From Planctomycetota bacterium (GTDB lineage: Bacteria > Planctomycetota > Phycisphaerae > Phycisphaerales > UBA1924), in contig JBCBZM010000021.1 of the NCBI GenBank assembly GCA_039815345.1, positions 1-31,866 of the forward strand: a stretch of DNA of 31,866 nt, read 5' to 3'. This document shows, piece after piece, positions 9,114 through 31,847 of this stretch. Within the stretch, counting starts at the first letter, position 1, and each line of letters begins with the position of its first letter. The notes beneath the pieces are model-generated. The model ran no database searches, had not been told where the DNA came from, and saw only the letters and a list, made by a program, of their open reading frames with translations. The translations under genes and the position numbers were made by a program.

Positions 9114-9158
9114 GCGGGTTCCTAAGCGTGTGATCGATTCGGTGTGATGATCGAGCGG

Positions 9159-10895
9159 CTACGACGCGGCGGGCGCGCACTCGGCGAGTGCGCGGGCGAC
9201 GCGGGCGGAAACGCCGTCGCGACCGACGAGCGCCAGCGTCTCGCCCAGCGGCGGGCTGACGTTGGTTCCGGTGATAGCGACGCGCAGGGGCGCGGCGAGC
9301 TTGCCCATGCCGACGCCCCTGGACTCAGCGAAGGCCTTCACGGCATCCTCGATCGCCTCGGGCGTGTATGGGTCGATGTGCGCGAGCGTGGGGGCGAAGG
9401 CCTCCAACAGAGCGTGGCCGCTCGGGTCGCCTTTTATCAAACCCTTAGCGACGGCCTTCTCGTCGTACACAATCGCGTCATCGGGCGTCAGCACAAACCG
9501 CAGCGGCTCGATCGCGTCGCAGAGCGTGCGCGTGCGCGGGCGGGTGGCCTTGGCGGCCAGTGCGAAGCGGTCGCCGAGTTGGTCGATCAGCCCGGGCTCG
9601 AACTCGGCGAGCCACACCCGCCAGAGTGTTGCGAACTCCGCGTCGCTCAGCTCGTGCTGGATCGTGTGCGCGTTGAACGAGGAGAGCTTCTCACGGTCGA
9701 ACTTGCTGGCCGACGAGCCGACGCGGTCGAACGAGAACTTCGAGCACAGATAGTCCGCGTCGAAGCGCTCGAGGTCTTTGCCGTCGTCGGCTTTCTCGCC
9801 CGGGTTCCAGCCGAGCAACTCGATGAAGTTGCAAACGACCTCTGGCAGGTATCCCGCGGCCTTGAAGTCGGCGACTTCGATCGCGGGCAGATCGACTTGC
9901 AGATGCTCGGCCAACGCGGCGAGCGGCGCGGTGTCGAGTTGGGCCTTCTTGTCCTTGATCCACTTGGCGAGCGCGGCATCCGTGAGACCCTCGACGGGGG
10001 ACGCCGAGAGGCCCGCCGCTTTGGCGGCCTCGCGTGCGGCCTTGTCTTTGTCGCGCTTGCTCATCTTGGAGCCGTCGGGGTTGAAGATGAGCGGCACGTG
10101 CGCGTAGCTGGGCACGCAAAAGGCCGAGCCGTCGTCGTGCTGCAGCAGAGATTGCAGCGCCACGTGCTTGGGCGTGTTGTTGAGGTGCTCTTGCCCGCGG
10201 ACGACATGCGTGACGCCCATCAGTTCATCATCGACGACGACCGCGAAGTGGTACGTGGGGAAGCCGTCGATCTTGCGGATGACGAAGTCGTCGGTGTGCT
10301 CGTCGGTAAACGTGACCTCACCGAGAATCTCGTCGTGGACCGTGATCGGATCGGCCGGCATCTTGAGCCGCAGCACGTGGGGCTCGGCCTGCATGCGCGC
10401 GAGCGCGGCGTCGCGGTCGTAGTCGGGCGCCTGCGCGTACCGAAATGTCCGCTTCTCGGCCTGCGCGGCTTGGCGCATCGCGTTGAGCTCTTCGGGCGTG
10501 TCGAACGCCGGGTAGGCCAGCCCGCGTTCGACGAGCTGGTCGAAGAAGCGGATGTAGGTGTCGAGTCTCTGGGCCTGATAGAACGGCCCGACGCCCCGGG
10601 CATCGCCGCCGAGTTGCTTGTCACCGCGTTGCGTGTCGCGGAGCAAGAACTCGGGCCCGTCGTCCCAATCGATGCCGAGCCAGGCGAGGTCTTCGAGGAT
10701 GCCCTTGGCGGCGTCCTCGCTGGAGCGGGCTCGGTCTGTGTCTTCGACACGCAGGACAAACCGGCCGCCGCCGCCTTCACGCTGGGCCCGCTGAGCGAAC
10801 ACCCAGCAGAAGAGCGCGGTGCGGGCGCCGCCGATATGGAGGTGGCCCGTGGGAGAGGGTGCGAATCGTGTGATCACGGGGGACGGGTCGGTCAT
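9159..10895 (-). CDS. gltX: glutamate--tRNA ligase (GluRS), long form
   Basis: TRFAPSPTGHLHIGGARTALF HIGH motif and KMSKR (KMSKS) motif; 578 aa with a C-terminal anticodon-binding extension. Confidence 0.9.
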   Translation of the reverse strand: MTDPSPVITRFAPSPTGHLHIGGARTALFCWVFAQRAQREGGGGRFVLRVEDTDRARSSEDAAKGILEDLAWLGIDWDDGPEFLLRDTQRGDKQLGGDARGVGPFYQAQRLDTYIRFFDQLVERGLAYPAFDTPEELNAMRQAAQAEKRTFRYAQAPDYDRDAALARMQAEPHVLRLKMPADPITVHDEILGEVTFTDEHTDDFVIRKIDGFPTYHFAVVVDDELMGVTHVVRGQEHLNNTPKHVALQSLLQHDDGSAFCVPSYAHVPLIFNPDGSKMSKRDKDKAAREAAKAAGLSASPVEGLTDAALAKWIKDKKAQLDTAPLAALAEHLQVDLPAIEVADFKAAGYLPEVVCNFIELLGWNPGEKADDGKDLERFDADYLCSKFSFDRVGSSASKFDREKLSSFNAHTIQHELSDAEFATLWRVWLAEFEPGLIDQLGDRFALAAKATRPRTRTLCDAIEPLRFVLTPDDAIVYDEKAVAKGLIKGDPSGHALLEAFAPTLAHIDPYTPEAIEDAVKAFAESRGVGMGKLAAPLRVAITGTNVSPPLGETLALVGRDGVSARVARALAECAPAAS

Positions 10896-11090
10896 ACGCG
10901 AAGCCTACGCATGTCCGGACCCGGGCCCCGCGATCGTGACGATCGGCATGCGCCGGCACGCCCAAGGGCGCCGACTTCTCGGACGCCGAGGTGCCCCCGC
11001 GGCTACCCCGGCCCGGACAGACCCGCGCTTCGGGGGCCTGGCGGTTCAATCGGATCACCTCGACGTGATCGGGCGCCGATAGGAACAGCG

Positions 11091-11627
11091 ATGACGTTTG
11101 CGCCCCGCATGCACTCCGGTTCGCACCGCGTTCCCGTTCACCGCGGACGCCGCGCGTTCAGTCTGCTTGAGTTGGTCGTCGTGGTTGTGATCCTCGGCAC
11201 GATCGCGGCGATCGCGATCCCGCGGACCAGCCGAGGGAGCGAGGGCGCTGCGGAGAGCGCAACCGCGACGGATCTTTCGAGAATGCGCCGCGCGATCGAG
11301 ATGTACCGCGTCGAACACGGCGGCGCGCCCCCGCCCGGCGCCGTCGTCGCGACAGCGCTGACCCAGTTCACCGACGACGCGCACGATGTCTCGGCGACGA
11401 GAACAACCACGCACATCTTCGGGCCCTACCTCAACGAGATCCCGCCGGTCAAGACCGGGCCGAACAAGGGCTCGAACGCGATCACCCTGACCGCCGGCGG
11501 CTCGGCCGGGTGGCTCTACACCGCGTCCACGGGGTTCATCCGCATGAACACGCCGATCGGGGACGCTGGCGCAGAAGACCTGAGCAACCGTGTCGAGGGG
11601 CTGCTCGGTCGGTTGACGATCAACTGA
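11091..11627 (+). CDS. prepilin-type N-terminal cleavage/methylation domain protein (pseudopilin-like)
   Basis: Only the last 178 codons of the 9144..11627 track ORF are plausible. They begin at ATG 11091 with the N-terminal RRAFSLLELVVVVVILGTIAAIAIP motif (an LLE core plus hydrophobic helix, typical of type IV pilin/pseudopilin leaders). Confidence 0.65.
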   Translation: MTFAPRMHSGSHRVPVHRGRRAFSLLELVVVVVILGTIAAIAIPRTSRGSEGAAESATATDLSRMRRAIEMYRVEHGGAPPPGAVVATALTQFTDDAHDVSATRTTTHIFGPYLNEIPPVKTGPNKGSNAITLTAGGSAGWLYTASTGFIRMNTPIGDAGAEDLSNRVEGLLGRLTIN

Positions 11628-11656
11628 TCACGAGGATCGGTGGAAAATGGCCCTCG

Positions 11657-12436
11657 TCAGGGCTGACCGTTGTTAGGCGGATCCTGGCACGTGAACTGGC
11701 AAGAAAAATCGTCCCAGTCGTAGGCAAACGACTTGACCCCATATGGGTTGCACGCAGCTATCGCCGCAGTTAAGCACTCATTGAACGTTGGCGGATCATT
11801 TTCTCCTTGAGAGATCGGAGCCGGGTCCAAAGGAGTGCAGGGCTCGCCCAACGAAGACAGAACCGCGAGCGAGAGCCCGAGCGCGAGTGTGCGTTCGTCT
11901 ACATCGAGCACTCTCGCAAGCGGCGCATGGACGCCAAAGACTTGGGCACTCGACGTGACACCGGTACTGAGATCTCGGTGTTCAACGAGGAGCGCACCCT
12001 GTTCGCCATCGGCCTGCACAGCGGTGGTGAGTGACACGCGATCGAGTTTGCCGCGCGTGATAGCCCAGCCGTCTTGCCCGACCGGCGCCGACTGCACGCA
12101 AGGACCGAAAGCCGCCGCTCTGATGGAAGCGGCATTGAGCGTGACCGTGATCGGGAATTCACTGTCGTCCGCCGTTTGATAGGTCCCGATGAGCGTAAGC
12201 CGCGCGCCGCGGTCGTCACCGACGCGGGTCACCACGCCGCCAACTTGGAGCAGCACAGTGCCACCATCAGGGAGTTCAGCGAGTACCGCCGCACCCTGCT
12301 GAGCCGCGACCAATGGTGCCCGATCCCCAGCGGCCGCCTCAGGTCGATCCATCTGACCGAACGCCGAACCCGCTGCGAGAGCAATCGTGCAGGCCGCCCA
12401 AGCGACGCCGCGCGACTTGCTCATCGTGCTGCTCAT
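11657..12436 (-). CDS. hypothetical secreted protein, Cys-rich C-terminus, orphan in a lower-GC islet
   Basis: Start at Met 12436 (MSSTMSKSRGVAWAACTIALAAGSAFGQ...) with GGAG 6 nt upstream. Signal peptide with an AFG-Q cleavage-like site. The C-terminal NECLTAAIAACNPYG...FSCQFTCQ is cysteine-rich. Local GC is lower and A/T-ending codons are frequent. Confidence 0.55.
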   Translation of the reverse strand: MSSTMSKSRGVAWAACTIALAAGSAFGQMDRPEAAAGDRAPLVAAQQGAAVLAELPDGGTVLLQVGGVVTRVGDDRGARLTLIGTYQTADDSEFPITVTLNAASIRAAAFGPCVQSAPVGQDGWAITRGKLDRVSLTTAVQADGEQGALLVEHRDLSTGVTSSAQVFGVHAPLARVLDVDERTLALGLSLAVLSSLGEPCTPLDPAPISQGENDPPTFNECLTAAIAACNPYGVKSFAYDWDDFSCQFTCQDPPNNGQP

Positions 12437-12442
12437 CGTGCT
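12419..12442 (-). repeat. perfect 12-bp tandem duplication (gctcatcgtgct x2) spanning the start codon of the secreted orphan gene
   Basis: Creates two in-frame ATGs (MSST-MSKS) 12 nt apart. Only the upstream one (12436) has an SD. Confidence 0.8.
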
Positions 12443-12731
12443 GCTCCAATGTTGTAACAAACCATGCCCTAGCGTGAGTTTGCTTAGGTTCATCGAGCCA
12501 GTCAATAGCGTAACAGCAATGAATCCTCAAATCGTGACCGATACGCGACACCCAATACGCGGGGCCGACTCATCCATGGGATTCATTTCCACACGCGGGC
12601 GCCACCTCCCGAGCAGGATTCCCGATAACGCGTATCCCTACTTTGGGGCCTGGCGCCCAATCCTCTACACTCTCCGGTCCCGCCCGCCCGGTTCTCGGCG
12701 TGGCGTCTGAGACCGTGTGGAGACCCCAATC

Positions 12732-23133: not shown

Positions 23134-24534
23134 TTAGAACGCCGCCTGTTTGGGCGCCCGCGGGAACGGGATCACGTCGCGGATGTTCGCCATCCCCGTC
23201 GTGAACTGCACCAGCCGCTCAAAGCCCAAGCCGAAGCCCGCGTGCGGCACCGTGCCGTACTTCCGCAGATCCCGGTACCAGTCATAATCGGCCTTGGGCA
23301 GGTTCATCTCGTCGAGGCGTGCGTCGAGCACGTCGAGCCGTTCCTCGCGCTGGGAGCCGCCGATGATCTCGCCGATGCCCGGCGCCAGCACGTCCATCGC
23401 CGCCACGGTCTTGCCGTCGTCGTTCATGCGCATGTAGAACGCCTTGATGTCCTTCGGATAGTCCATCAGCACCAGCGGCTGCTTGAAGTGCTCCTCCGTC
23501 AGGTACCGCTCGTGCTCTGATTGCAGGTCGGTCCCCCACTCCACCGGGAACTCGAACGACTTCTTGGCTCCCTTGAGAATGTCGATCGCTTCAGTGTACG
23601 ACAGCCGGCGGAAGGGCGTGTCGACCACGTGCCGCAGCCGTTCGATCAGGCCCTTCTCGATCCGAAGATCAAAGAACGCCATATCGTCGGCCCGCTTGGT
23701 CAGCACCTCGTCGAGCACCTCTTTCAGCATCGCCTCGGCAAGGTCCGCGTTGTCGTTCAGGTCGGCAAACGCGACCTCCGGCTCGATCATCCAGAACTCG
23801 CTGAGATGCCGGGTCGTGTTCGAGTTCTCGGCACGAAACGTCGGCCCGAACGTGTACACCCGGCTGAGCGCACAGCAATAGGTCTCCACGTTCAACTGCC
23901 CCGACACGGTCAGGTGGGCCTCGCGACCAAAGAAGTCCTCGCCGAAGTCCACGCCGCCGCCTTCCGCTCGCGGCGGGTTGAGCGCATCCAGCGTCGAGAC
24001 GCGAAACATCTCACCCGCGCCCTCGCAGTCGCTGGCCGTGATGATCGGCGTGTGGATGTAGTAAAACCCGCGCCGATCAAAGAAGTTGTGGATCGCCAGG
24101 CTCAGCGCGTGCCGCACGCGCGCAACGGCGCCGAACGTGTTCGTCCGCGCCCGCAGGTGTGCCACCTCGCGCAGGTACTCGAAGCTGTGGCGTTTGTTGC
24201 TCACCGGGTAGGTGTCGGGCTCCTCGACCCAGCCGACGACGCGCACGGCGTCGGCCGCGATCTCGACCGACTGCCCCTTGCCTTTGCTTTCCACGAGCGT
24301 GCCGTCCACCTCGATCGCGCAGCCCGTGGTGAGCTTGGCGACCTCGTCGGCGTAGTTGTTCAGACCGTTCCGCGCCACGACCTGGATCGGGTCGTGGCAG
24401 GTGCCGTCGTGCAACGCGATGAACGAAAGCCCGCCGTCGGCCTTGCTGTCGCGCCGGGTGCGGACCCAGCCCTTGACCGTCACCGCCGTGCCGGGCGATG
24501 CCGCCGCCGCCTCGGAAATCTTCAACCACGCCAT
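23134..24534 (-). CDS. asnS: asparagine--tRNA ligase (AsnRS)
   Basis: Class II aaRS motifs with the AsnRS-specific [21 protein letters not shown] block, an N-terminal OB-fold and the C-terminal GFGLGFERL motif 3. Start at Met 24534 (MAWLKI..) with GGAAAGGA about 10 nt upstream. Confidence 0.9.
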
Positions 24535-24666
24535 GCCCTTGGTCCTTTCCGGCGCCGCCCGCCGGGATCGTTCCGGACGGAGGCGCAAGCCGCCGCGATG
24601 CTAGGTCGCCCCGCCCCGAGCCAGACCGCCCCGGTACCATCACGCCCGTTCTTTCAGGAGCCTTGC

Positions 24667-26085
24667 GTGGATCATTTCGCATACCGCGACGGCGAACTCT
24701 GGGCCGACGGCCTCCGAGCCGCCGAACTCGCCGACCGCTTCGGCACGCCGCTCTACGTCTACACCGCCGCCACCATCGCCGAGCACATCAGCCGGTTCCG
24801 CCAGGCCTTCGCGCCGTTGAACCCCGGCCTGCGCTACGCCGTCAAGGCCAGCGGCAACCTCCAACTCATCCGTCTCATGGCCGAGCTCGGCATGGGCGCC
24901 GACGCCGTGAGTCAGGGCGAGGTCGAACGCGCCTGGCTCGCGGGCGTCCCCATGGATCAGATCGTCATGGCCGGCGTCGCCAAAACCGACGACGAGATCG
25001 CCTCAGCCCTTTCAGGCGCCCACAGCCCGCTTGCGGGCTCCGACCTCCGCGGCCCCGCCGGCGCCGGCCCCGAACACCGAGGACCGATCGGCCGATTCAA
25101 TGTCGAGTCCGAAGGCGAACTCCTCCGCATCGACCGCGTCGCGCGCTCACTCGGATCGACGCCACAACACGCCGCGCACTGCTCACTCCGCGTCAACCCC
25201 GACGTAGACGCCCACGCCCACGCCTACACCACCACCGGCACCCACGCCAACAAGTTCGGCGTCCCCATCGAGCACGCGGCCGACGCCTTCGACCACGCCC
25301 GTGCGCTCGACGCCGTCACGCTCGACGGCCTGCACCTGCACCTCGGCTCGCCCATCCTTTCCACAGAACCCTTCAAGCTCGCAATCACCAAAGCTCTCGA
25401 CCTGATCGATGAGTTGGCCCGCCGTGGCCACGCGATCCGCTCGCTCAACATCGGCGGCGGGTTCGCCGCCGACTACCACACAGGCCAGGCCCCCTGGGCC
25501 CGCCAGTACGCCGACACCATCGTGCCCATGCTCGAACCCCGCGTCCGCGAAGGGCTGGAAATCCTGCTCGAGCCCGGCCGTACGATCATGGCCTCCGCCG
25601 GTGTTCTGCTCGTGCGCGTGGTCGATGTGAAACGCACCATCAGCAAACGCTTCATCGTCTGCGACGCCGGGATGAACGCGCTCGTCCGCCCTTCGCTCTA
25701 CGGCGCCGAGCACTTCGTCTGGCCCACACGCCCGGGCGATGCGCTCACACCCCTCGAGCGCGCGGTCTCGCCCAAGCTCGCCAACGAAGACATCGCCGAG
25801 ATCGAACCCGCCGACGTGGTCGGGCCGCTCTGCGAATCCAGCGACTTCCTCGCCCGCGACCGCCGGCTGCCGCCCGTGCAACCGGGCGAGGTGCTGGCTG
25901 TCTTCACCGCCGGCGCCTACGGCATGTCGATGGCGACGACCTACAACGACCGCCCCAAACCCGCAGAAGCACTGGTCCAAGGCGACGAAGCCGAACTCAT
26001 CCGCCGCCGACAAACGCTCGCCGACCTGCTCGCGCCCGAGCTCTCGTTGCGGTCGCCACAGCCGAACGATCCGCGTCCATCCTGA
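24667..26085 (+). CDS. lysA: diaminopimelate decarboxylase
   Basis: Only the last 472 codons of the 23521..26085 track ORF are real. GTG 24667 is preceded by AGGAG 7 nt upstream. N-terminal FAYRDGELWADGL, YAVKAS (PLP Lys), GGGF and the C-terminal CESSD / AGAYG blocks are all typical of LysA. Confidence 0.9.
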   Translation: MDHFAYRDGELWADGLRAAELADRFGTPLYVYTAATIAEHISRFRQAFAPLNPGLRYAVKASGNLQLIRLMAELGMGADAVSQGEVERAWLAGVPMDQIVMAGVAKTDDEIASALSGAHSPLAGSDLRGPAGAGPEHRGPIGRFNVESEGELLRIDRVARSLGSTPQHAAHCSLRVNPDVDAHAHAYTTTGTHANKFGVPIEHAADAFDHARALDAVTLDGLHLHLGSPILSTEPFKLAITKALDLIDELARRGHAIRSLNIGGGFAADYHTGQAPWARQYADTIVPMLEPRVREGLEILLEPGRTIMASAGVLLVRVVDVKRTISKRFIVCDAGMNALVRPSLYGAEHFVWPTRPGDALTPLERAVSPKLANEDIAEIEPADVVGPLCESSDFLARDRRLPPVQPGEVLAVFTAGAYGMSMATTYNDRPKPAEALVQGDEAELIRRRQTLADLLAPELSLRSPQPNDPRPS

Positions 26086-27903: not shown

Positions 27904-29142
27904 ATGCGTGTCTCGGCCGACATCCACCTGCCCCCCCACGCCTCGCCCGCCGGCGATGATCCCCTCGGTCTCACCGCGGGCGAGCTTGTCGCGCGCCGGG
28001 TCCGAGAGGGCGCGGGGCCCGGCCAGGCCCTCACCGCCTACCGCCGACTCTTCCGCGAAGGCGTCACCGACCACTCGCTCGCCACGACCCGCACGGCGCC
28101 CATCGTCCGCGTGCTCCGCTCCGAAAGCCCCGAGGGCGAGGTCTACAAGTTCGTCCAACGCCTCGACCCGCCGAGCCGCGGCCCGCTGGCGCGCGATGAA
28201 CGCGTGGAACACCTCGACATCGAATCCGTCGTCATCCCCATGGTCGGCCGACGCGGCTACCGCACCCACACCCTCTGCGTCTCCAGCCAGGTCGGCTGCG
28301 CGATGGGATGCGACTTCTGCGAGACCGCGCAGATGGGCCTCGTCCGTTCGCTCACCGCGGCCGAGATCGTCGGCCAGTGGCACGCCGCCACGCACGCGCT
28401 CAACAGCCACCCCGATGTGAACGCCGACCCTTCCGATCGGGAAGCGCGACGGATCACCAACATCGTCTTCATGGGCATGGGTGAGCCCATGGACAACGCG
28501 GCCGAGGTCATCCGCGCCATCGCCGTCCTCACCGATCACAACGGCGCCGGGCTCGCCGCGAGCAAGATCACTGTCTCCACCGTCGGCCGGATCGACGGCC
28601 TGGAGAAACTCGCCGACGTCGCCAACACCTCCAACTGGCGCCGACTCGGTCTGGCCGTCAGCCTCAACGCACCCAACGACACCGTCCGTTCGTCCATCAT
28701 GCCGATCAACAAGGGCATGCCCATGGCCGACCTGCGCGAGGCCCTCGCCCGCTTCCCGCGGCTCGCCCAGAGCAAGCTCTGCGTCGAGTACGTCCTGATC
28801 CCGGGCGTCAACGATCAGCCGGACCACGCCGCCGAACTCGCTGAGTACCTCCGGCCTTTGGGCGCCCTCATCGACCCAACCCGAGGCGCCCCGCCCTCGG
28901 CCGTGGTCAACGTTATCCCCTACAACCCGCGCCGAGACTCCCCTTGGCCCGCGCCCGCCGAAGAGCGCGTCGCCGACTTCATCGCCGAACTCGCCGATCA
29001 GGGCCTGTTCGTCAAACGCCGCCGCACCAAAGGCCGGGACACCATGGCCGCCTGCGGCCAACTCGGCGCCGCCAGCATCCGCAAACGCAAGTACGTCGGC
29101 GTCACGCTCGCCGGCGAAACCGCCGACCCCGATCCCCGCTAG
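27904..29142 (+). CDS. rlmN: radical-SAM 23S rRNA/tRNA adenine-C2 methyltransferase (RlmN/Cfr family)
   Basis: CVSSQVGCAMGCDFCETA (CxxxCxxC cluster), FMGMGEP, ITVSTVG, AVSLNAPND and VNVIPYNP with a C-terminal ACGQL, all RlmN signature blocks. Confidence 0.85.
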   Translation: MRVSADIHLPPHASPAGDDPLGLTAGELVARRVREGAGPGQALTAYRRLFREGVTDHSLATTRTAPIVRVLRSESPEGEVYKFVQRLDPPSRGPLARDERVEHLDIESVVIPMVGRRGYRTHTLCVSSQVGCAMGCDFCETAQMGLVRSLTAAEIVGQWHAATHALNSHPDVNADPSDREARRITNIVFMGMGEPMDNAAEVIRAIAVLTDHNGAGLAASKITVSTVGRIDGLEKLADVANTSNWRRLGLAVSLNAPNDTVRSSIMPINKGMPMADLREALARFPRLAQSKLCVEYVLIPGVNDQPDHAAELAEYLRPLGALIDPTRGAPPSAVVNVIPYNPRRDSPWPAPAEERVADFIAELADQGLFVKRRRTKGRDTMAACGQLGAASIRKRKYVGVTLAGETADPDPR

Positions 29143-29170: not shown

Positions 29171-31675
29171 ATGCGACGACGGCGGCGATGGCTCTCGAAG
29201 TGGTGGTGGGCGTTCTATCTCGCGCTGCTTGTCGTGTCGCATTGGGTCCAGGGGTCATTCGACAGTCAAGCGGATCCGCCCGATCCGAGCGCGTTCGACC
29301 GAAGTGTGGTCAAGATCGACGTCCCCACTTCGACCGGCCCGGCGCCCATCGACTTTGCCTACATCGAACACGCGCCGACGCCTTCCGACCCATCACGCCC
29401 CGCCGTCGTCCTACTCCACGGCTCACCCGGCAACGCACGAAGCCTCTCCGACATGGGCGAACTGCTCGCCCGGCCCACTGACAACCAACTCGACGCCCAC
29501 CCCGGCTTTCGAACCCTCGCCGCCGATCTGCCCGGCTTCGGCGTCTCCACCGGTTACATCCCCGACTACTCCATCTCGTTCCACGCCGACAGCGTCATCG
29601 CGTGGCTCGACGCCGTCGACGTCGAGCGTGCGCACCTCGTCGGCTTCAGCCTCGGCGGCGGCGTCATCCTCCACGTCGCCGAGCGACGCCCCGACCTCGT
29701 CGCCTCCCTCACACTCCTCGCAGCCGTCGGCGCCGAAGAAACCGAAGGCTCCGGCCGACACTGGTTCGAACAACTCAAATACGCCATCGGCTACGGCGCC
29801 CTCGTCGTCGCACCCGAAGCCATCCCCCACTTCGGCCTGCTCGGCCCGCGCCAACCGCGCCACGCGTTCCTGCGCAACTTCTTCGACACCGACCAACGCC
29901 CGCTGCGCGCACTGCTCGAATCCAACGAACACCCGATGCTCATCCTCCACGGCCGAAACGACCCGCTCATAGCGCCCTGGGTCGCCGAGTTCCACCACGA
30001 GATCACGCCGAACAGCCGGCTGCTGATGCTCGATGACGACCACTTCATGCCCTTCCGGCGCCCCGAACGCACCACCGCCGCCCTGCGCCCGTTTCTTGAA
30101 TCCCACGACAACCCGGACGCGCCCGTGCGCACAGACGCGGCGTACGAAGTCGAACCCAGCGTCCACCCCTTCGGCCCGTTCGGCGCCAACATCGAACGCC
30201 GCGTGCGCCTGGCGCCGCCCGGCCTTGCCATCGCGCTCATCGCCATCGCGTCACTGCTGGCGCCGCGTCTCACACTTGTCCTCGCCGGCCTGCTGATCCC
30301 GGGCGCCTATCTCGACATCGGCGTCGTCCTTGTCGGCGCGCTCATCGGCCGAGCCGTGCGCTCGCGGCTGCGCCGACCGTTTGCGACCTTCTTCCGCACG
30401 CTCGGCGCCCTCATCGTCGTCGCCTTCATCCTCGGCCCCACTGCGTTTGCAGTCGTCCGCGCCCTCGACCCGCCGCTCTCGTCGATCGCCGTGCTGCTCG
30501 CGCCCGTCATCGCCTATGCAATCCTCGCCCTCGTGCCGCGAGGCTTCACGCGCCGCGGCCGTCAACGCCTGCACGCCTCCTTCCGCAAGCGCGTCCATCA
30601 CGAGTTCTGGCCCGCGTGGCTGCTCTACCTCCCGCTGGCGCCGTACGTGCTCTGGCTCTCTGTCCGTCACCGCAACCCGCTCGTCTTTACCGCCGCCAAC
30701 CCGGGCGTCCCCGCGGGCGGCGGGCTGGTCGGCGAGAGCAAGCACGAAATCCTCGCCGGCTTGGCAACGACCGACGCCGGGCGCACGGCCGTGCTGCAAT
30801 ACGTCTTTATCGAAGCCGGCCCGCCCGAAGCCCGCGCCGCCCGAGCCGTGCGCGCCGTCGAGACGGACCCCGACCTCGGCGGCTGGCCGGTCATCTGCAA
30901 GCCCGATCTCGGCTGGCGCGGCGCCTCGGTACGGCTCTGCCGAAACGCGGACGACATCCGCCGATACTTCGACGCCGTCGATCGCCCCTCCATCGTGCAG
31001 CGCTATCACCCCGGCCCGGAAGAAGCCGGGCTGTTCTGGATCCGCGACCCAGCCACCATCGCCGAACCCGCGCGCACGCCGGCCGGATCCATCTACGCCG
31101 TCACACGCAAGCACTTCCCGACCATCACAGGCGACGGCGTGCGCACGCTGGAGCAACTCGTCATGGACAGCCCGCGCCTCCGCCTTCAGGAACGCGCCTT
31201 CCGAGCACGCCACGCGGAACACTGGCGCGACGTGGTTCCTGACGGCGAAACACGCCGACTCGTCCAAGCCGGCAACCACTACCAGGGCTGCCGATTCACC
31301 GACGGCGCCGACCTCGTCACACCCGAGCTCGAAGCGGTCATCGACACCATCGCCCGCGGCTACCGCGGGCCCACCGGCGCCCATCTCGACTTCGGCCGAT
31401 TCGATGTGCGCTACGACAACGACGAGTCCCTACGCCGAGGCGAAGCCTTCGGCATCGTCGAACTCAACGGCTCGACCAGCGAAGCGACCAACATCTACGA
31501 CCCCGAACGCTCCACGCCCTGGGCGTACCGCGTGCTGTTCGGCCAATGGAAACGCCTGTACGCCCTCGGCGCCGCCCGTCGCGCCGCGGGCGCACGGCCC
31601 ATGCGCTCGTGGGAACTCATCGCCCTGCTGTGGCACTACTGGCGCAAGCCCCGCACACCACCCGAAGCCGATTGA
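29171..31675 (+). CDS. tripartite fusion protein: N-terminal alpha/beta-hydrolase domain, about 4-helix transmembrane segment, and a C-terminal putative ATP-grasp-like ligase domain
   Basis: 834 aa. Residues about 60-300 carry VVLLHGSPGN ... GFSLGGGV (GxSxG nucleophile elbow) and a later HGRNDP / DDDHF acid/His region. Residues about 345-460 (nt about 30211-30540) have about 4 hydrophobic helices. The C-terminal about 370 aa contains WPVICKPDLGWRGASV (like the ATP-grasp hhhKPxxGxxGxGV phosphate-binding loop) and GIVELNGSTSE (like the ATP-grasp E.N Mg-binding motif). The domain call for the last part is from motif resemblance only. Confidence 0.8.
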   Translation: MRRRRRWLSKWWWAFYLALLVVSHWVQGSFDSQADPPDPSAFDRSVVKIDVPTSTGPAPIDFAYIEHAPTPSDPSRPAVVLLHGSPGNARSLSDMGELLARPTDNQLDAHPGFRTLAADLPGFGVSTGYIPDYSISFHADSVIAWLDAVDVERAHLVGFSLGGGVILHVAERRPDLVASLTLLAAVGAEETEGSGRHWFEQLKYAIGYGALVVAPEAIPHFGLLGPRQPRHAFLRNFFDTDQRPLRALLESNEHPMLILHGRNDPLIAPWVAEFHHEITPNSRLLMLDDDHFMPFRRPERTTAALRPFLESHDNPDAPVRTDAAYEVEPSVHPFGPFGANIERRVRLAPPGLAIALIAIASLLAPRLTLVLAGLLIPGAYLDIGVVLVGALIGRAVRSRLRRPFATFFRTLGALIVVAFILGPTAFAVVRALDPPLSSIAVLLAPVIAYAILALVPRGFTRRGRQRLHASFRKRVHHEFWPAWLLYLPLAPYVLWLSVRHRNPLVFTAANPGVPAGGGLVGESKHEILAGLATTDAGRTAVLQYVFIEAGPPEARAARAVRAVETDPDLGGWPVICKPDLGWRGASVRLCRNADDIRRYFDAVDRPSIVQRYHPGPEEAGLFWIRDPATIAEPARTPAGSIYAVTRKHFPTITGDGVRTLEQLVMDSPRLRLQERAFRARHAEHWRDVVPDGETRRLVQAGNHYQGCRFTDGADLVTPELEAVIDTIARGYRGPTGAHLDFGRFDVRYDNDESLRRGEAFGIVELNGSTSEATNIYDPERSTPWAYRVLFGQWKRLYALGAARRAAGARPMRSWELIALLWHYWRKPRTPPEAD

Positions 31676-31710: not shown

Positions 31711-31733
31711 CCCTCTCCCATTGGGGGAGAGGG
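31711..31733 (+). terminator. GC-rich hairpin downstream of the fusion gene (possible terminator; no U-tract)
   Basis: CCCTCTCCC (31711-31719), loop ATTGG, GGGAGAGGG (31725-31733). A second hairpin GAGGGG-tctc-CCCCTC lies at 31741-31756. The GGAGAGGG arm can alternatively pair with CCCTCTCC at 31752-31759. Confidence 0.3.
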
Positions 31734-31789
31734 CTGGGGTGAGGGGTCTCCCCCTCTCCGTTGCTACGCAATCTCTAACGCCCGCTCCG

Positions 31790-31847
<58 letters not shown>

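Follow-up and report, generated by a model that had tools for sequence, protein, structure and literature searches.

A degenerate DedA/VTT scaffold links a predicted periplasmic alpha/beta-hydrolase to a predicted cytoplasmic ATP-grasp ligase in Planctomycetota

The stretch of DNA analyzed here (the window) comprises 31,866 nucleotides of contig JBCBZM010000021.1 from a Planctomycetota bacterium of the order Phycisphaerales. Near its 3' end, an open reading frame (ORF) of 834 codons occupies positions 29171..31675 of the forward strand. An earlier interpretation made from the letters alone (the sequence-only reading) had described this frame as a fusion of an alpha/beta-hydrolase, a membrane segment of about four hydrophobic helices and an ATP-grasp-like domain, and all three modules are upheld by our analysis. 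The ORF is a real gene for a single inner-membrane protein that carries one enzyme on either side of the membrane. The features of the fusion protein are as follows; AF2 denotes AlphaFold2 and TM denotes transmembrane.

29171..31675, + strand: whole ORF, 834 aa, uninterrupted from ATG to stop, containing TM1, alpha/beta-hydrolase, degenerate VTT module and ATP-grasp ligase
29171..29260, + strand: Arg-rich N-terminus and TM1 (residues 1-30), putative signal anchor, N-in; AF2 helix 2-30 with a conserved hydrophobic core
29303..30130, + strand: alpha/beta-hydrolase domain (residues 45-320), predicted periplasmic, with the HGSPG oxyanion motif at 83-87; Pfam Abhydrolase_1 and Foldseek
29648..29650, + strand: Ser160, the nucleophile in GFSLGG, invariant in 44 aligned homologues and both subfamilies
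29960-29962 and 30041-30043, + strand: invariant triad partners Asp264 and His291, respectively
30173..30598, + strand: membrane module (residues 335-476), a degenerate DedA/VTT domain by hhalign, AF2 helices and K/R-rich loops
30314..30316, + strand: Asp382, a nearly invariant acidic residue within the membrane, directly past re-entrant loop 1
30602..30667, + strand: EFWP hydrophobic helix (residues 478-499), probably interfacial, leading into the ligase; AF2 helix 482-499
30668..31600, + strand: ATP-grasp carboxylate-amine ligase domain (residues 500-810), predicted cytoplasmic; profile against PDB, AF2 and Foldseek
30899..30901, + strand: Lys577 in the PVICKP strand, putatively the lysine that binds ATP, with a Gly-rich loop after the strand; invariant and aligned to PVVIKP...G..G
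31385..31468, + strand: putative catalytic/Mg block, DFGRFDVR (D740, R743, D745, R747) and VELNG (E764, N766), from conservation and alignment to CphA

The reading frame is a single one, as had been claimed, and the four motifs quoted earlier are all located within it: VVLLHGSPGN at residues 79-88, GFSLGGGV at 158-165, WPVICKPDLGWRGASV at 572-587 and GIVELNGSTSE at 761-771. An independent Logan contig codes for the identical protein. The database search returned 751 relatives, more than 100 of which are full-length (~800-940 aa, 38-92% identity); these come from NCBI, ENA, JGI and Logan assemblies and belong almost all to Phycisphaerae/Planctomycetota. The same full-length architecture is found in relatives at 92% and 65% identity and in more than 100 at 38-47%, in independent assemblies. 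The full-length AF2 model has a predicted local distance difference test score (pLDDT) of 91 and a predicted template modelling score (pTM) of 0.78. A frameshift or mis-assembly joining two or three separate genes, a danger that had been pointed out together with the three-module description, is ruled out by the independent identical ORF, the more than 100 homologues with the same module order and the confident AF2 model. No point in its favor was found, and such an artefact is next to impossible.

Neither Pfam nor NCBIfam has a model for the C-terminal ~365 residues. Searches of Pfam, NCBIfam and PDB with the C-terminal half as a single sequence gave only sub-threshold matches, each on the PVICKP...G..G stretch, to TTL, RimK, GSP synthase and biotin carboxylases. 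With a profile of 29 sequences run against PDB sequences, every match listed is an ATP-grasp protein, and cyanophycin synthetases score best (E 8e-6). The alignment with the cyanophycin synthetase CphA extends from the KP strand to the E-x-N motif, which pairs with ivEvN of CphA, and K577 falls on the KP strand in the alignments with CphA, biotin carboxylases and RimK. The AF2 model of the ligase domain, built with the 29-sequence alignment, reaches a pLDDT of 92.2 and a pTM of 0.90. Foldseek against PDB yields 365 matches at E<1e-3 (best 2.8e-10); the 50 listed are all ATP-grasp, with CphA2, CphA1 and GshAB at the top, followed by Ddl, CPS and biotin carboxylase. Across 73 proteins from three groups, ten residues do not vary (K577, Q610, E618, N702, H703, R743, D745, R747, E764 and N766), whereas D740 is invariant only in the subfamily of the window's protein and varies in the type 2 and Leptospira proteins.

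The domain therefore combines the ATP-grasp fold in its central and C-terminal subdomains with the Lys strand and Gly-rich loop and with the Asp/Glu-x-Asn Mg motif. Because profile, AF2 model, Foldseek matches and invariant residues agree, the C-terminal module is confirmed, at the level of sequence and predicted structure, as a true ATP-grasp ligase, and it looks catalytically active. The caveat attached to the earlier ATP-grasp assignment, namely that the C-terminal domain might model as some other fold, did not materialize. Its description of the nucleotide-binding motif as "P-loop-like" was imprecise: the motif is the ATP-grasp Lys strand plus Gly-rich loop, and there is no Walker P-loop. 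The three-subdomain fold proposed for checking is found in part, with the central and C-terminal subdomains present and the classical N-terminal subdomain reduced and replaced in the AF2 model by a mostly helical, membrane-proximal region. The module shares with the CphA G domain and the GshAB module the same fold and the same series of motifs (KP strand and Gly loop, GDG...L insert, N-x-x-x-G, R-x-D and E-x-N). It differs in its low identity to them (15-18%), in lacking the Mur-ligase-like M domain or gamma-glutamylcysteine ligase domain, in its helical N-terminal subdomain near the membrane, and in its covalent tie to a membrane module and a predicted periplasmic hydrolase. An identity as cyanophycin synthetase (CphA1/CphA2) was rejected, since only the G-domain region aligns (profile positions 96-296) and Pfam/NCBIfam detect no Mur-ligase domain.

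The hydrolase module of the earlier description is likewise borne out by profile search and structure prediction, spanning residues 45-320. Pfam Abhydrolase_1 matches with an E-value of 1.2e-23 (84.5 bits against a cutoff of 25.8), and S160, D264, H291 and H83-G84 of the alpha/beta-hydrolase fold are invariant or nearly so, the S160/D264/H291 triad being invariant in the 73 proteins. A distinctive lid motif, ETEGSG...E...Y, is also invariant. Judged by these residues, the hydrolase is catalytically intact as a Ser-Asp-His enzyme. Its best Foldseek matches are small carboxylesterases, haloalkane dehalogenases and C-C hydrolases, with a TM-score on target of ~0.75.

Past the hydrolase, AF2 predicts helices at residues 350-363, 365-374, 383-397, 403-431, 436-458, 461-475 and 482-499. 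The hydrophobic block that had been read as about four helices is present (residues 345-458); what had been missed is its nature as a decayed DedA/VTT domain, and the N-terminal TM helix. The module consists of a putative re-entrant loop 1 (350-374), a short TM helix 1 (TMH1, 383-397), two TM helices (403-431 and 436-458) and an Arg-rich cytoplasmic helix (461-475). Asp382 is invariant in the aligned homologues and is Asp in 42 of 43 type-1 and 20 of 22 type-2 proteins. The relatives possess either a module of ~140 residues, as here, or one of ~207 residues, and many of the latter match Pfam VTT_dom/DedA. When the short module is aligned with the VTT-type module of the relatives by hhalign, the probability is 98.5% and the E-value 1.9e-15, with ~65 central residues missing. 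DedA proteins are arranged as re-entrant loop 1, TMH1, cytosolic region, re-entrant loop 2 and TMH2 (Okawa et al., bioRxiv 10.1101/2020.12.18.423352), with one additional TM at each end and both termini inside (bioRxiv 10.1101/2020.12.18.423352). Set against this canonical layout, the deleted ~65 residues correspond to the cytosolic region and re-entrant loop 2. By profile alignment the module is thus a DedA/VTT remnant that has lost re-entrant loop 2 and is not a full member, and Pfam VTT (PF09335) gives no direct match in the window's protein.

Compared with DedA/VTT proteins such as YqjA, TMEM41B and VMP1 (PF09335), the module is homologous and appears to share the N-in/C-in orientation and the re-entrant loop 1 on the trans side. 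It differs in that the cytosolic region and re-entrant loop 2 are missing, as is the acidic SED motif in loop 1, and in having a hydrolase inserted in the trans-side loop and an ATP-grasp domain appended at the C-terminus. On this comparison, the hydrolase would be an insertion into a DedA scaffold, in the periplasmic loop that connects the additional N-terminal TM to re-entrant loop 1.

Which side each domain faces had been left for topology prediction, and the signal anchor that bears on this question had not been recognized. The hydrolase is predicted to be periplasmic and the ligase cytoplasmic, that is, on opposite faces of the membrane, because four observations point the same way. The conserved N-terminal TM helix (residues ~8-30) is preceded by a mean of 4.1 Lys plus Arg residues, and the loops 394-409 and 457-478 are strongly positive (K/R-rich) whereas loop 430-437 is not. 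The TANGO2-fused relatives begin with MCTV..., carry the NRDE motif and have no signal peptide, and their cytoplasmic TANGO2 domain is divided from the hydrolase by an Arg-rich linker followed by the same TM helix. Cysteines are scarce in the hydrolase (0.5 per domain, compared with 4.5 in the ATP-grasp domain). Finally, helices 350-363 and 365-374 lack the length for a full membrane crossing, and they suit a re-entrant hairpin that dips in from the trans side. A reading by hydropathy only, which places two TM helices in residues 349-394 and the hydrolase in the cytoplasm, was rejected since the N-in signal anchor, the TANGO2 fusions, the short-helix hairpin of AF2 and the DedA topology all speak against it.

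The ligase is joined to the membrane module by the EFWP helix, in which E478 is invariant, W480 is invariant in the aligned homologues and Trp or Tyr across loci, and P481 is nearly invariant. Even the stand-alone ATP-grasp proteins of Leptospira, which lack a TM domain, retain this helix, and its retention suggests that the ligase works at the membrane surface.

An exhaustive profile search gave 3,508 cluster representatives at 50% identity, 1,432 of them at E<1e-30. The family is present in Phycisphaerae, Gemmataceae, Isosphaeraceae, Leptospirales and eight Leptospira species, and its architectures include hydrolase, short module and ligase (the type in the window); hydrolase, VTT and ligase; VTT and ligase; TANGO2, hydrolase, VTT and ligase; and the ligase alone. 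The planctomycete fusions are annotated only as "alpha/beta fold hydrolase", and the Leptospira protein as "carboxylate--amine ligase" (NCBI) or "ATP-grasp domain protein" (UniProt). Among the lineages linked to an RlmN-type gene, forms of ~900 aa have a degenerate loop-2 region and forms of ~830 aa, including the window's protein, have this region deleted. The translocator part therefore appears to be decaying while the active sites are kept. Stages of decay of the VTT module, with both active sites invariant, are seen in loci L013, L015, L018, L025, L033 and similar ones. The window's protein is 48% (ligase) and 46% (hydrolase) identical to the operon-linked type and 49% and 46% identical to its own synteny type, and in the star-like neighbor-joining tree the operon-linked type and Leptospira fall within the lineages of the window's type, so that there is no deep paralogue split. 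That this is not a characterized family, as had been supposed, agrees with the lack of a Pfam or NCBIfam model for the C-terminal domain and of any such family in the literature searched. No description of the architecture or gene set was found in the searchable literature, a coverage that did not take in the survey of Iyer et al. 2009, and nothing relevant was found on ATP-grasp proteins with DedA, VTT, TANGO2 or DinB. Each of the three folds is well known; their combination, a predicted periplasmic hydrolase within a DedA/VTT scaffold ending in a cytoplasmic ATP-grasp domain, is uncatalogued.

The genomic context was surveyed by clustering all ORFs around 80 genome loci. Of the 22 loci with an intact VTT module, 13 contain a GH3 gene together with a gene for a separate ~300-aa hydrolase, 17 a DinB-like gene (~190 aa), 16 a TANGO2 gene and two an OlsF-like gene. 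A typical tight operon (L006/L037) consists of hydrolase, GH3, DinB-like, TANGO2 and fusion gene. The GH3 protein is a strong homologue of OlsH, the lyso-ornithine lipid synthetase (NF052613; E 9.6e-118, 394 bits against an equivalog cutoff of 620), and the hydrolase beside it is OlsI-like; OlsH and OlsI form the planctomycete ornithine-lipid pathway (PMC12493201). At L090, a further locus, an OlsF-like gene (E 5e-122; 408 bits against 620) adjoins a TANGO2-fused member and is followed by a TMEM164-related acyltransferase that scores above its cutoff, and OlsF-like genes are also adjacent in L086 and L064. Aminolipid-synthase genes are thus linked to the family as OlsH/OlsI-like genes in 13 of the 22 intact-VTT loci and as OlsF-like genes in three loci. 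The hydrolase of the fusion protein was also considered as an OlsI orthologue (NF052614), and this was rejected at 30.1 bits against a cutoff of 385, a weaker score than that of generic hydrolase models. The bacterial TANGO2 (start MC..., NRDE motif) occurs as a separate gene overlapping the start of the fusion gene (L006:7219-8007) or fused N-terminally (P0240, P0243). TANGO2 is a Cys-Ntn-hydrolase-like, acyl-CoA-binding protein of unknown substrate (PMC13044924; PMC11867700). The DinB-like partner is identified by Pfam DinB_2 in 12 of 14 individual members, and its profile gave no match in PDB.

The eight Leptospira loci, like L088/L089, all have a set made up of a DinB-like protein, a ligase or VTT-ligase, an adenylate cyclase and a separate membrane-anchored hydrolase. 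This hydrolase shares the HGSPG, DxPGFG, GHSYGG, HGxxD and DHFxP motifs and is 24% identical to the hydrolase module of the fusion protein (E 5e-8). At L073:9303-14022 the Leptospira set comprises a DinB-like protein of 176 aa, a stand-alone ATP-grasp protein of 361 aa, a membrane adenylate cyclase and the hydrolase, which has a hydrophobic segment at its N-terminus with a lipobox-like FLGC at the segment's end. The other Leptospira loci are L041, L053, L054, L070, L072, L074 and L076, with pathogenic species included. We know of no aminolipid reported from Leptospira. Leptospirales possess OlsB homologues (PMC12971839).

The loci of the window's own type are different in content. The 38 loci without the re-entrant-loop-2 motif have a housekeeping synteny of LysA, an RlmN-type radical SAM protein, the fusion gene, HDOD/HD, PNPOx and DnaB. 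In the window, the gene directly upstream is the following.

27904..29142, + strand: RlmN/Cfr-type radical-SAM gene, separated from the fusion gene by a 28-nt gap; NCBIfam RlmN, E 5.6e-71

The radical-SAM protein scores 239 bits against an RlmN cutoff of 290, and its first ~100 residues are unaligned to RlmN; it retains the catalytic Cys motifs CVSSQVGC..C..C and ACGQL and could be either a housekeeping RlmN or a specialized paralogue. The gene lies directly upstream in 32 of the 80 loci, all Phycisphaerae-type, often overlapping the start codon of the fusion gene, and the two genes are probably co-transcribed. As a functional partner it was set aside, being confined to Phycisphaerae and surrounded by housekeeping genes; we treat it as synteny and keep the partnership as a minor rival. 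A flotillin gene upstream, whose co-occurrence with the fusion had been suggested for testing, is likewise a matter of local synteny: a flotillin/SPFH gene is found in five of the 80 loci only, all close relatives, and a functional link was rejected. Genes of cyclic-nucleotide signaling recur beside the family, as HD/HDOD genes in Phycisphaerae, as HDOD-GGDEF genes in 16 loci, and as adenylate/guanylate cyclases beside family members in Leptospira and L088. Examples are as follows.

L002:10506-11849, cyclic-nucleotide gene
L004:10549-11883, cyclic-nucleotide gene
L088:9842-11119, cyclic-nucleotide gene
L073:11753-13051, cyclic-nucleotide gene

The operons of the relatives with ornithine-lipid synthesis genes make the fusion protein a candidate lipid head-group modifying enzyme. 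We propose, with somewhat less than even confidence, that it acts as an ATP-dependent amidoligase for the head groups of aminolipids and that this activity is coupled to a periplasmic hydrolase; substrate class, chemistry and step order are all part of the inference. The Arg-rich N-terminus and signal-anchor helix would place the hydrolase in the periplasm, the decayed DedA/VTT module (re-entrant loop 1 and three membrane helices) would bring the chain back to the cytoplasm, and the EFWP helix would hold the ligase at the membrane surface. There, the ligase would spend ATP to convert a carboxylate to an acyl-phosphate and couple it to an amine on an ornithine-lipid-type aminolipid head group, for example by adding an amine or amino acid onto the free ornithine carboxylate. 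The modified lipid might then cross to the outer leaflet, through the intact scramblase-like VTT module in the relatives and by other means in the window's protein, and the periplasmic hydrolase may remove or transfer the acyl or aminoacyl group. The sequence-only reading had imagined adding and removing a decoration on a lipid or envelope polymer. This idea survives in spirit, as a candidate role, through the link of relatives to ornithine-lipid synthase genes; none of these genes is found at the window's locus.

Several known systems resemble parts of this scheme. The homologues of OlsH (GH3), OlsI (alpha/beta-hydrolase) and OlsF stand in operon with or adjoining the VTT-type members in Planctomycetota, and OlsH/OlsI were discovered in the same lineage as the family (PMC12493201); the fusion protein itself is none of these enzymes, and the OlsH/OlsI paper is silent on an ATP-grasp, DedA, TANGO2 or DinB partner (PMC12493201). 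An ATP-dependent transfer of taurine to the carboxyl group of ornithine lipid is known biochemically with its gene unknown (2026 review, PMC12971839). This cerilipin (tauro-ornithine lipid) activity of Gluconacetobacter cerinus is an ATP-dependent amide ligation on the ornithine-lipid carboxylate and hence of the ATP-grasp reaction class (PMC12971839), whereas its host belongs to Acetobacteraceae and the family is found in Planctomycetota and Leptospirales, with the amine here unassigned. The fusion protein shares with MprF only the logic of modification and translocation with an external hydrolase; the enzymes are unrelated, MprF being an aminoacyl-tRNA and GNAT-like synthase and not one of ATP and ATP-grasp. 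In MprF, a cytoplasmic domain that aminoacylates head groups is fused to a membrane domain that translocates lipids, and an extracytoplasmic aminoacyl-phosphatidylglycerol hydrolase reverses the modification. Pfam and NCBIfam scans of the window's protein detected none of the MprF domains (flippase TM, LPG_synthase_C/DUF2156).

A number of observations weigh against the amidoligase proposal. The window's own 31.8 kb contains no aminolipid, DinB-like, TANGO2 or GH3 gene, and lipid-gene partners are absent from all 38 loci without re-entrant loop 2, so that the link to lipids holds for the window's protein by homology only. Its VTT module, without re-entrant loop 2, probably does not translocate by itself. 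The OlsH- and OlsF-like scores fall below the equivalog cutoffs, so the neighbors could make other N-acyl amino acids, and the proposal does not account for the most consistent partner, the DinB-like protein. The closest solved ATP-grasp relatives (CphA, GshAB and Ddl) use soluble substrates and are only 15-18% identical. The predicted hydrolase fold is generic, with nearest structures uninformative on its substrate, and the membrane orientation, derived from helix lengths, charge and fusions, is a matter of parity arguments and not of geometry.

Other explanations were weighed as well. The RlmN-linked subfamily may have diverged in role, its activities being independent and fused for co-localization, or working with the upstream RlmN/Cfr-type enzyme. 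The missing lipid-gene partners in 38 of 38 loci, the radical-SAM gene directly upstream and often overlapping in 32 loci, its score below the RlmN cutoff and divergent N-terminal ~100 residues, and the progressive degeneration of the VTT module would all fit. This explanation is nevertheless doubtful: all catalytic residues in the two enzymes remain invariant or nearly so, as do Asp382 and the EFWP helix, the window's protein is equally similar to the operon type and its own type with no deep clade split, the radical-SAM protein keeps the RlmN catalytic Cys motifs, and the other neighbors (LysA, PNPOx and DnaB) are housekeeping genes, pointing to inherited synteny. It is unlikely that the ligase makes a soluble peptide or thiol metabolite, similar to glutathione or cyanophycin, with the module anchoring or exporting and the hydrolase degrading or recycling the product outside. 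The DinB fold is used by low-molecular-weight-thiol transferases, and a DinB-superfamily protein is the most consistent partner across phyla; the nearest solved relatives are the cyanophycin synthetase G domains and the glutathione-synthetase module of GshAB, and TANGO2 has an Ntn-type amidase-like fold (PMC13044924). Against a soluble product stand the constant tether of the ligase, which is either bound to the membrane or equipped with the EFWP helix (stand-alone forms included), the low identity to CphA and GshAB given above, the recurrent enzymatic neighbors, which are lipid enzymes (OlsH, OlsI, OlsF and TMEM164-type), and the lack of glutamate-cysteine ligase or peptide-export genes in the neighborhoods surveyed.

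An undecaprenyl-linked precursor (Lipid II or a glycan carrier) could instead be the substrate, with Ddl- or D-Asp-ligase-like attachment of an amino acid at the cytoplasmic face, DedA-type flipping of the polyprenyl carrier and periplasmic trimming by the hydrolase. Bacterial DedA proteins have been proposed as undecaprenyl-phosphate flippases (PMC10127716), and Ddl enzymes are among the significant structural matches. We consider this very unlikely, as the 80 neighborhoods show recurrent aminolipid genes but no recurrent genes for peptidoglycan, glycosyltransferases or polyprenyl, and the VTT module of the window's protein is decayed.

The amidoligase proposal can be carried further for the family as a whole, although this extended version is doubtful. 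The family might represent the missing class of ATP-dependent aminolipid head-group amidoligases, a reaction type known since the 1970s from cerilipin, and in its complete form a single-polypeptide assembly line operating with OlsH/OlsI or OlsF and a DinB-like metalloenzyme. Such an assembly line would combine a cytoplasmic TANGO2 Cys-Ntn amidase/acyltransferase and the ATP-grasp ligase with a VTT/DedA lipid translocator and a periplasmic serine hydrolase. If this were true, the bacterial operons would suggest that TANGO2, a protein implicated in human disease, has N-acyl amino-acid lipids as its natural class of substrates. The linkage to OlsH/OlsI provides a testable candidate for an aminolipid modification or turnover step without known genes, and the bacterial TANGO2/VTT fusions and operons give a hint at the function of two eukaryotic proteins of lipid homeostasis. 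In pathogenic Leptospira, the ligase, the DinB-like protein and the hydrolase are kept as a gene set. The significance is tempered by the window's own copy, which belongs to a decayed, context-poor subtype with an inferred substrate.

The G+C content of the window is 63-72%, and the neighbors are ordinary chromosomal genes. Two short GC-rich hairpins lie 3' of the stop codon, at 31711-31733 (CCCTCTCCC/GGGAGAGGG) and 31741-31756 (GAGGGG/CCCCTC), with no T tract, and the terminator scan reported nothing at either position. A perfect-looking (AG)25 microsatellite is found at 31796-31845, ~120 nt past the stop codon and near the window end (TRF score 93). The GC skew, positive over the first ~11 kb, is negative beyond ~12 kb as far as the window end, with a cumulative maximum near 11-12 kb; the switch at ~11000-12500 could be a change in gene-strand bias or a replication landmark. 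In an ORF of 854 aa at 23521-26085 (+), the Orn/DAP/Arg decarboxylase domains begin only at residue ~417, so its true start is probably much later. This ORF is LysA-like, in agreement with the LysA cluster in related loci. Similarly, an 827-aa ORF at 9144-11627 (+) has a prepilin-type N-methylation motif at residue 667, suggesting that this ORF is called over-long.

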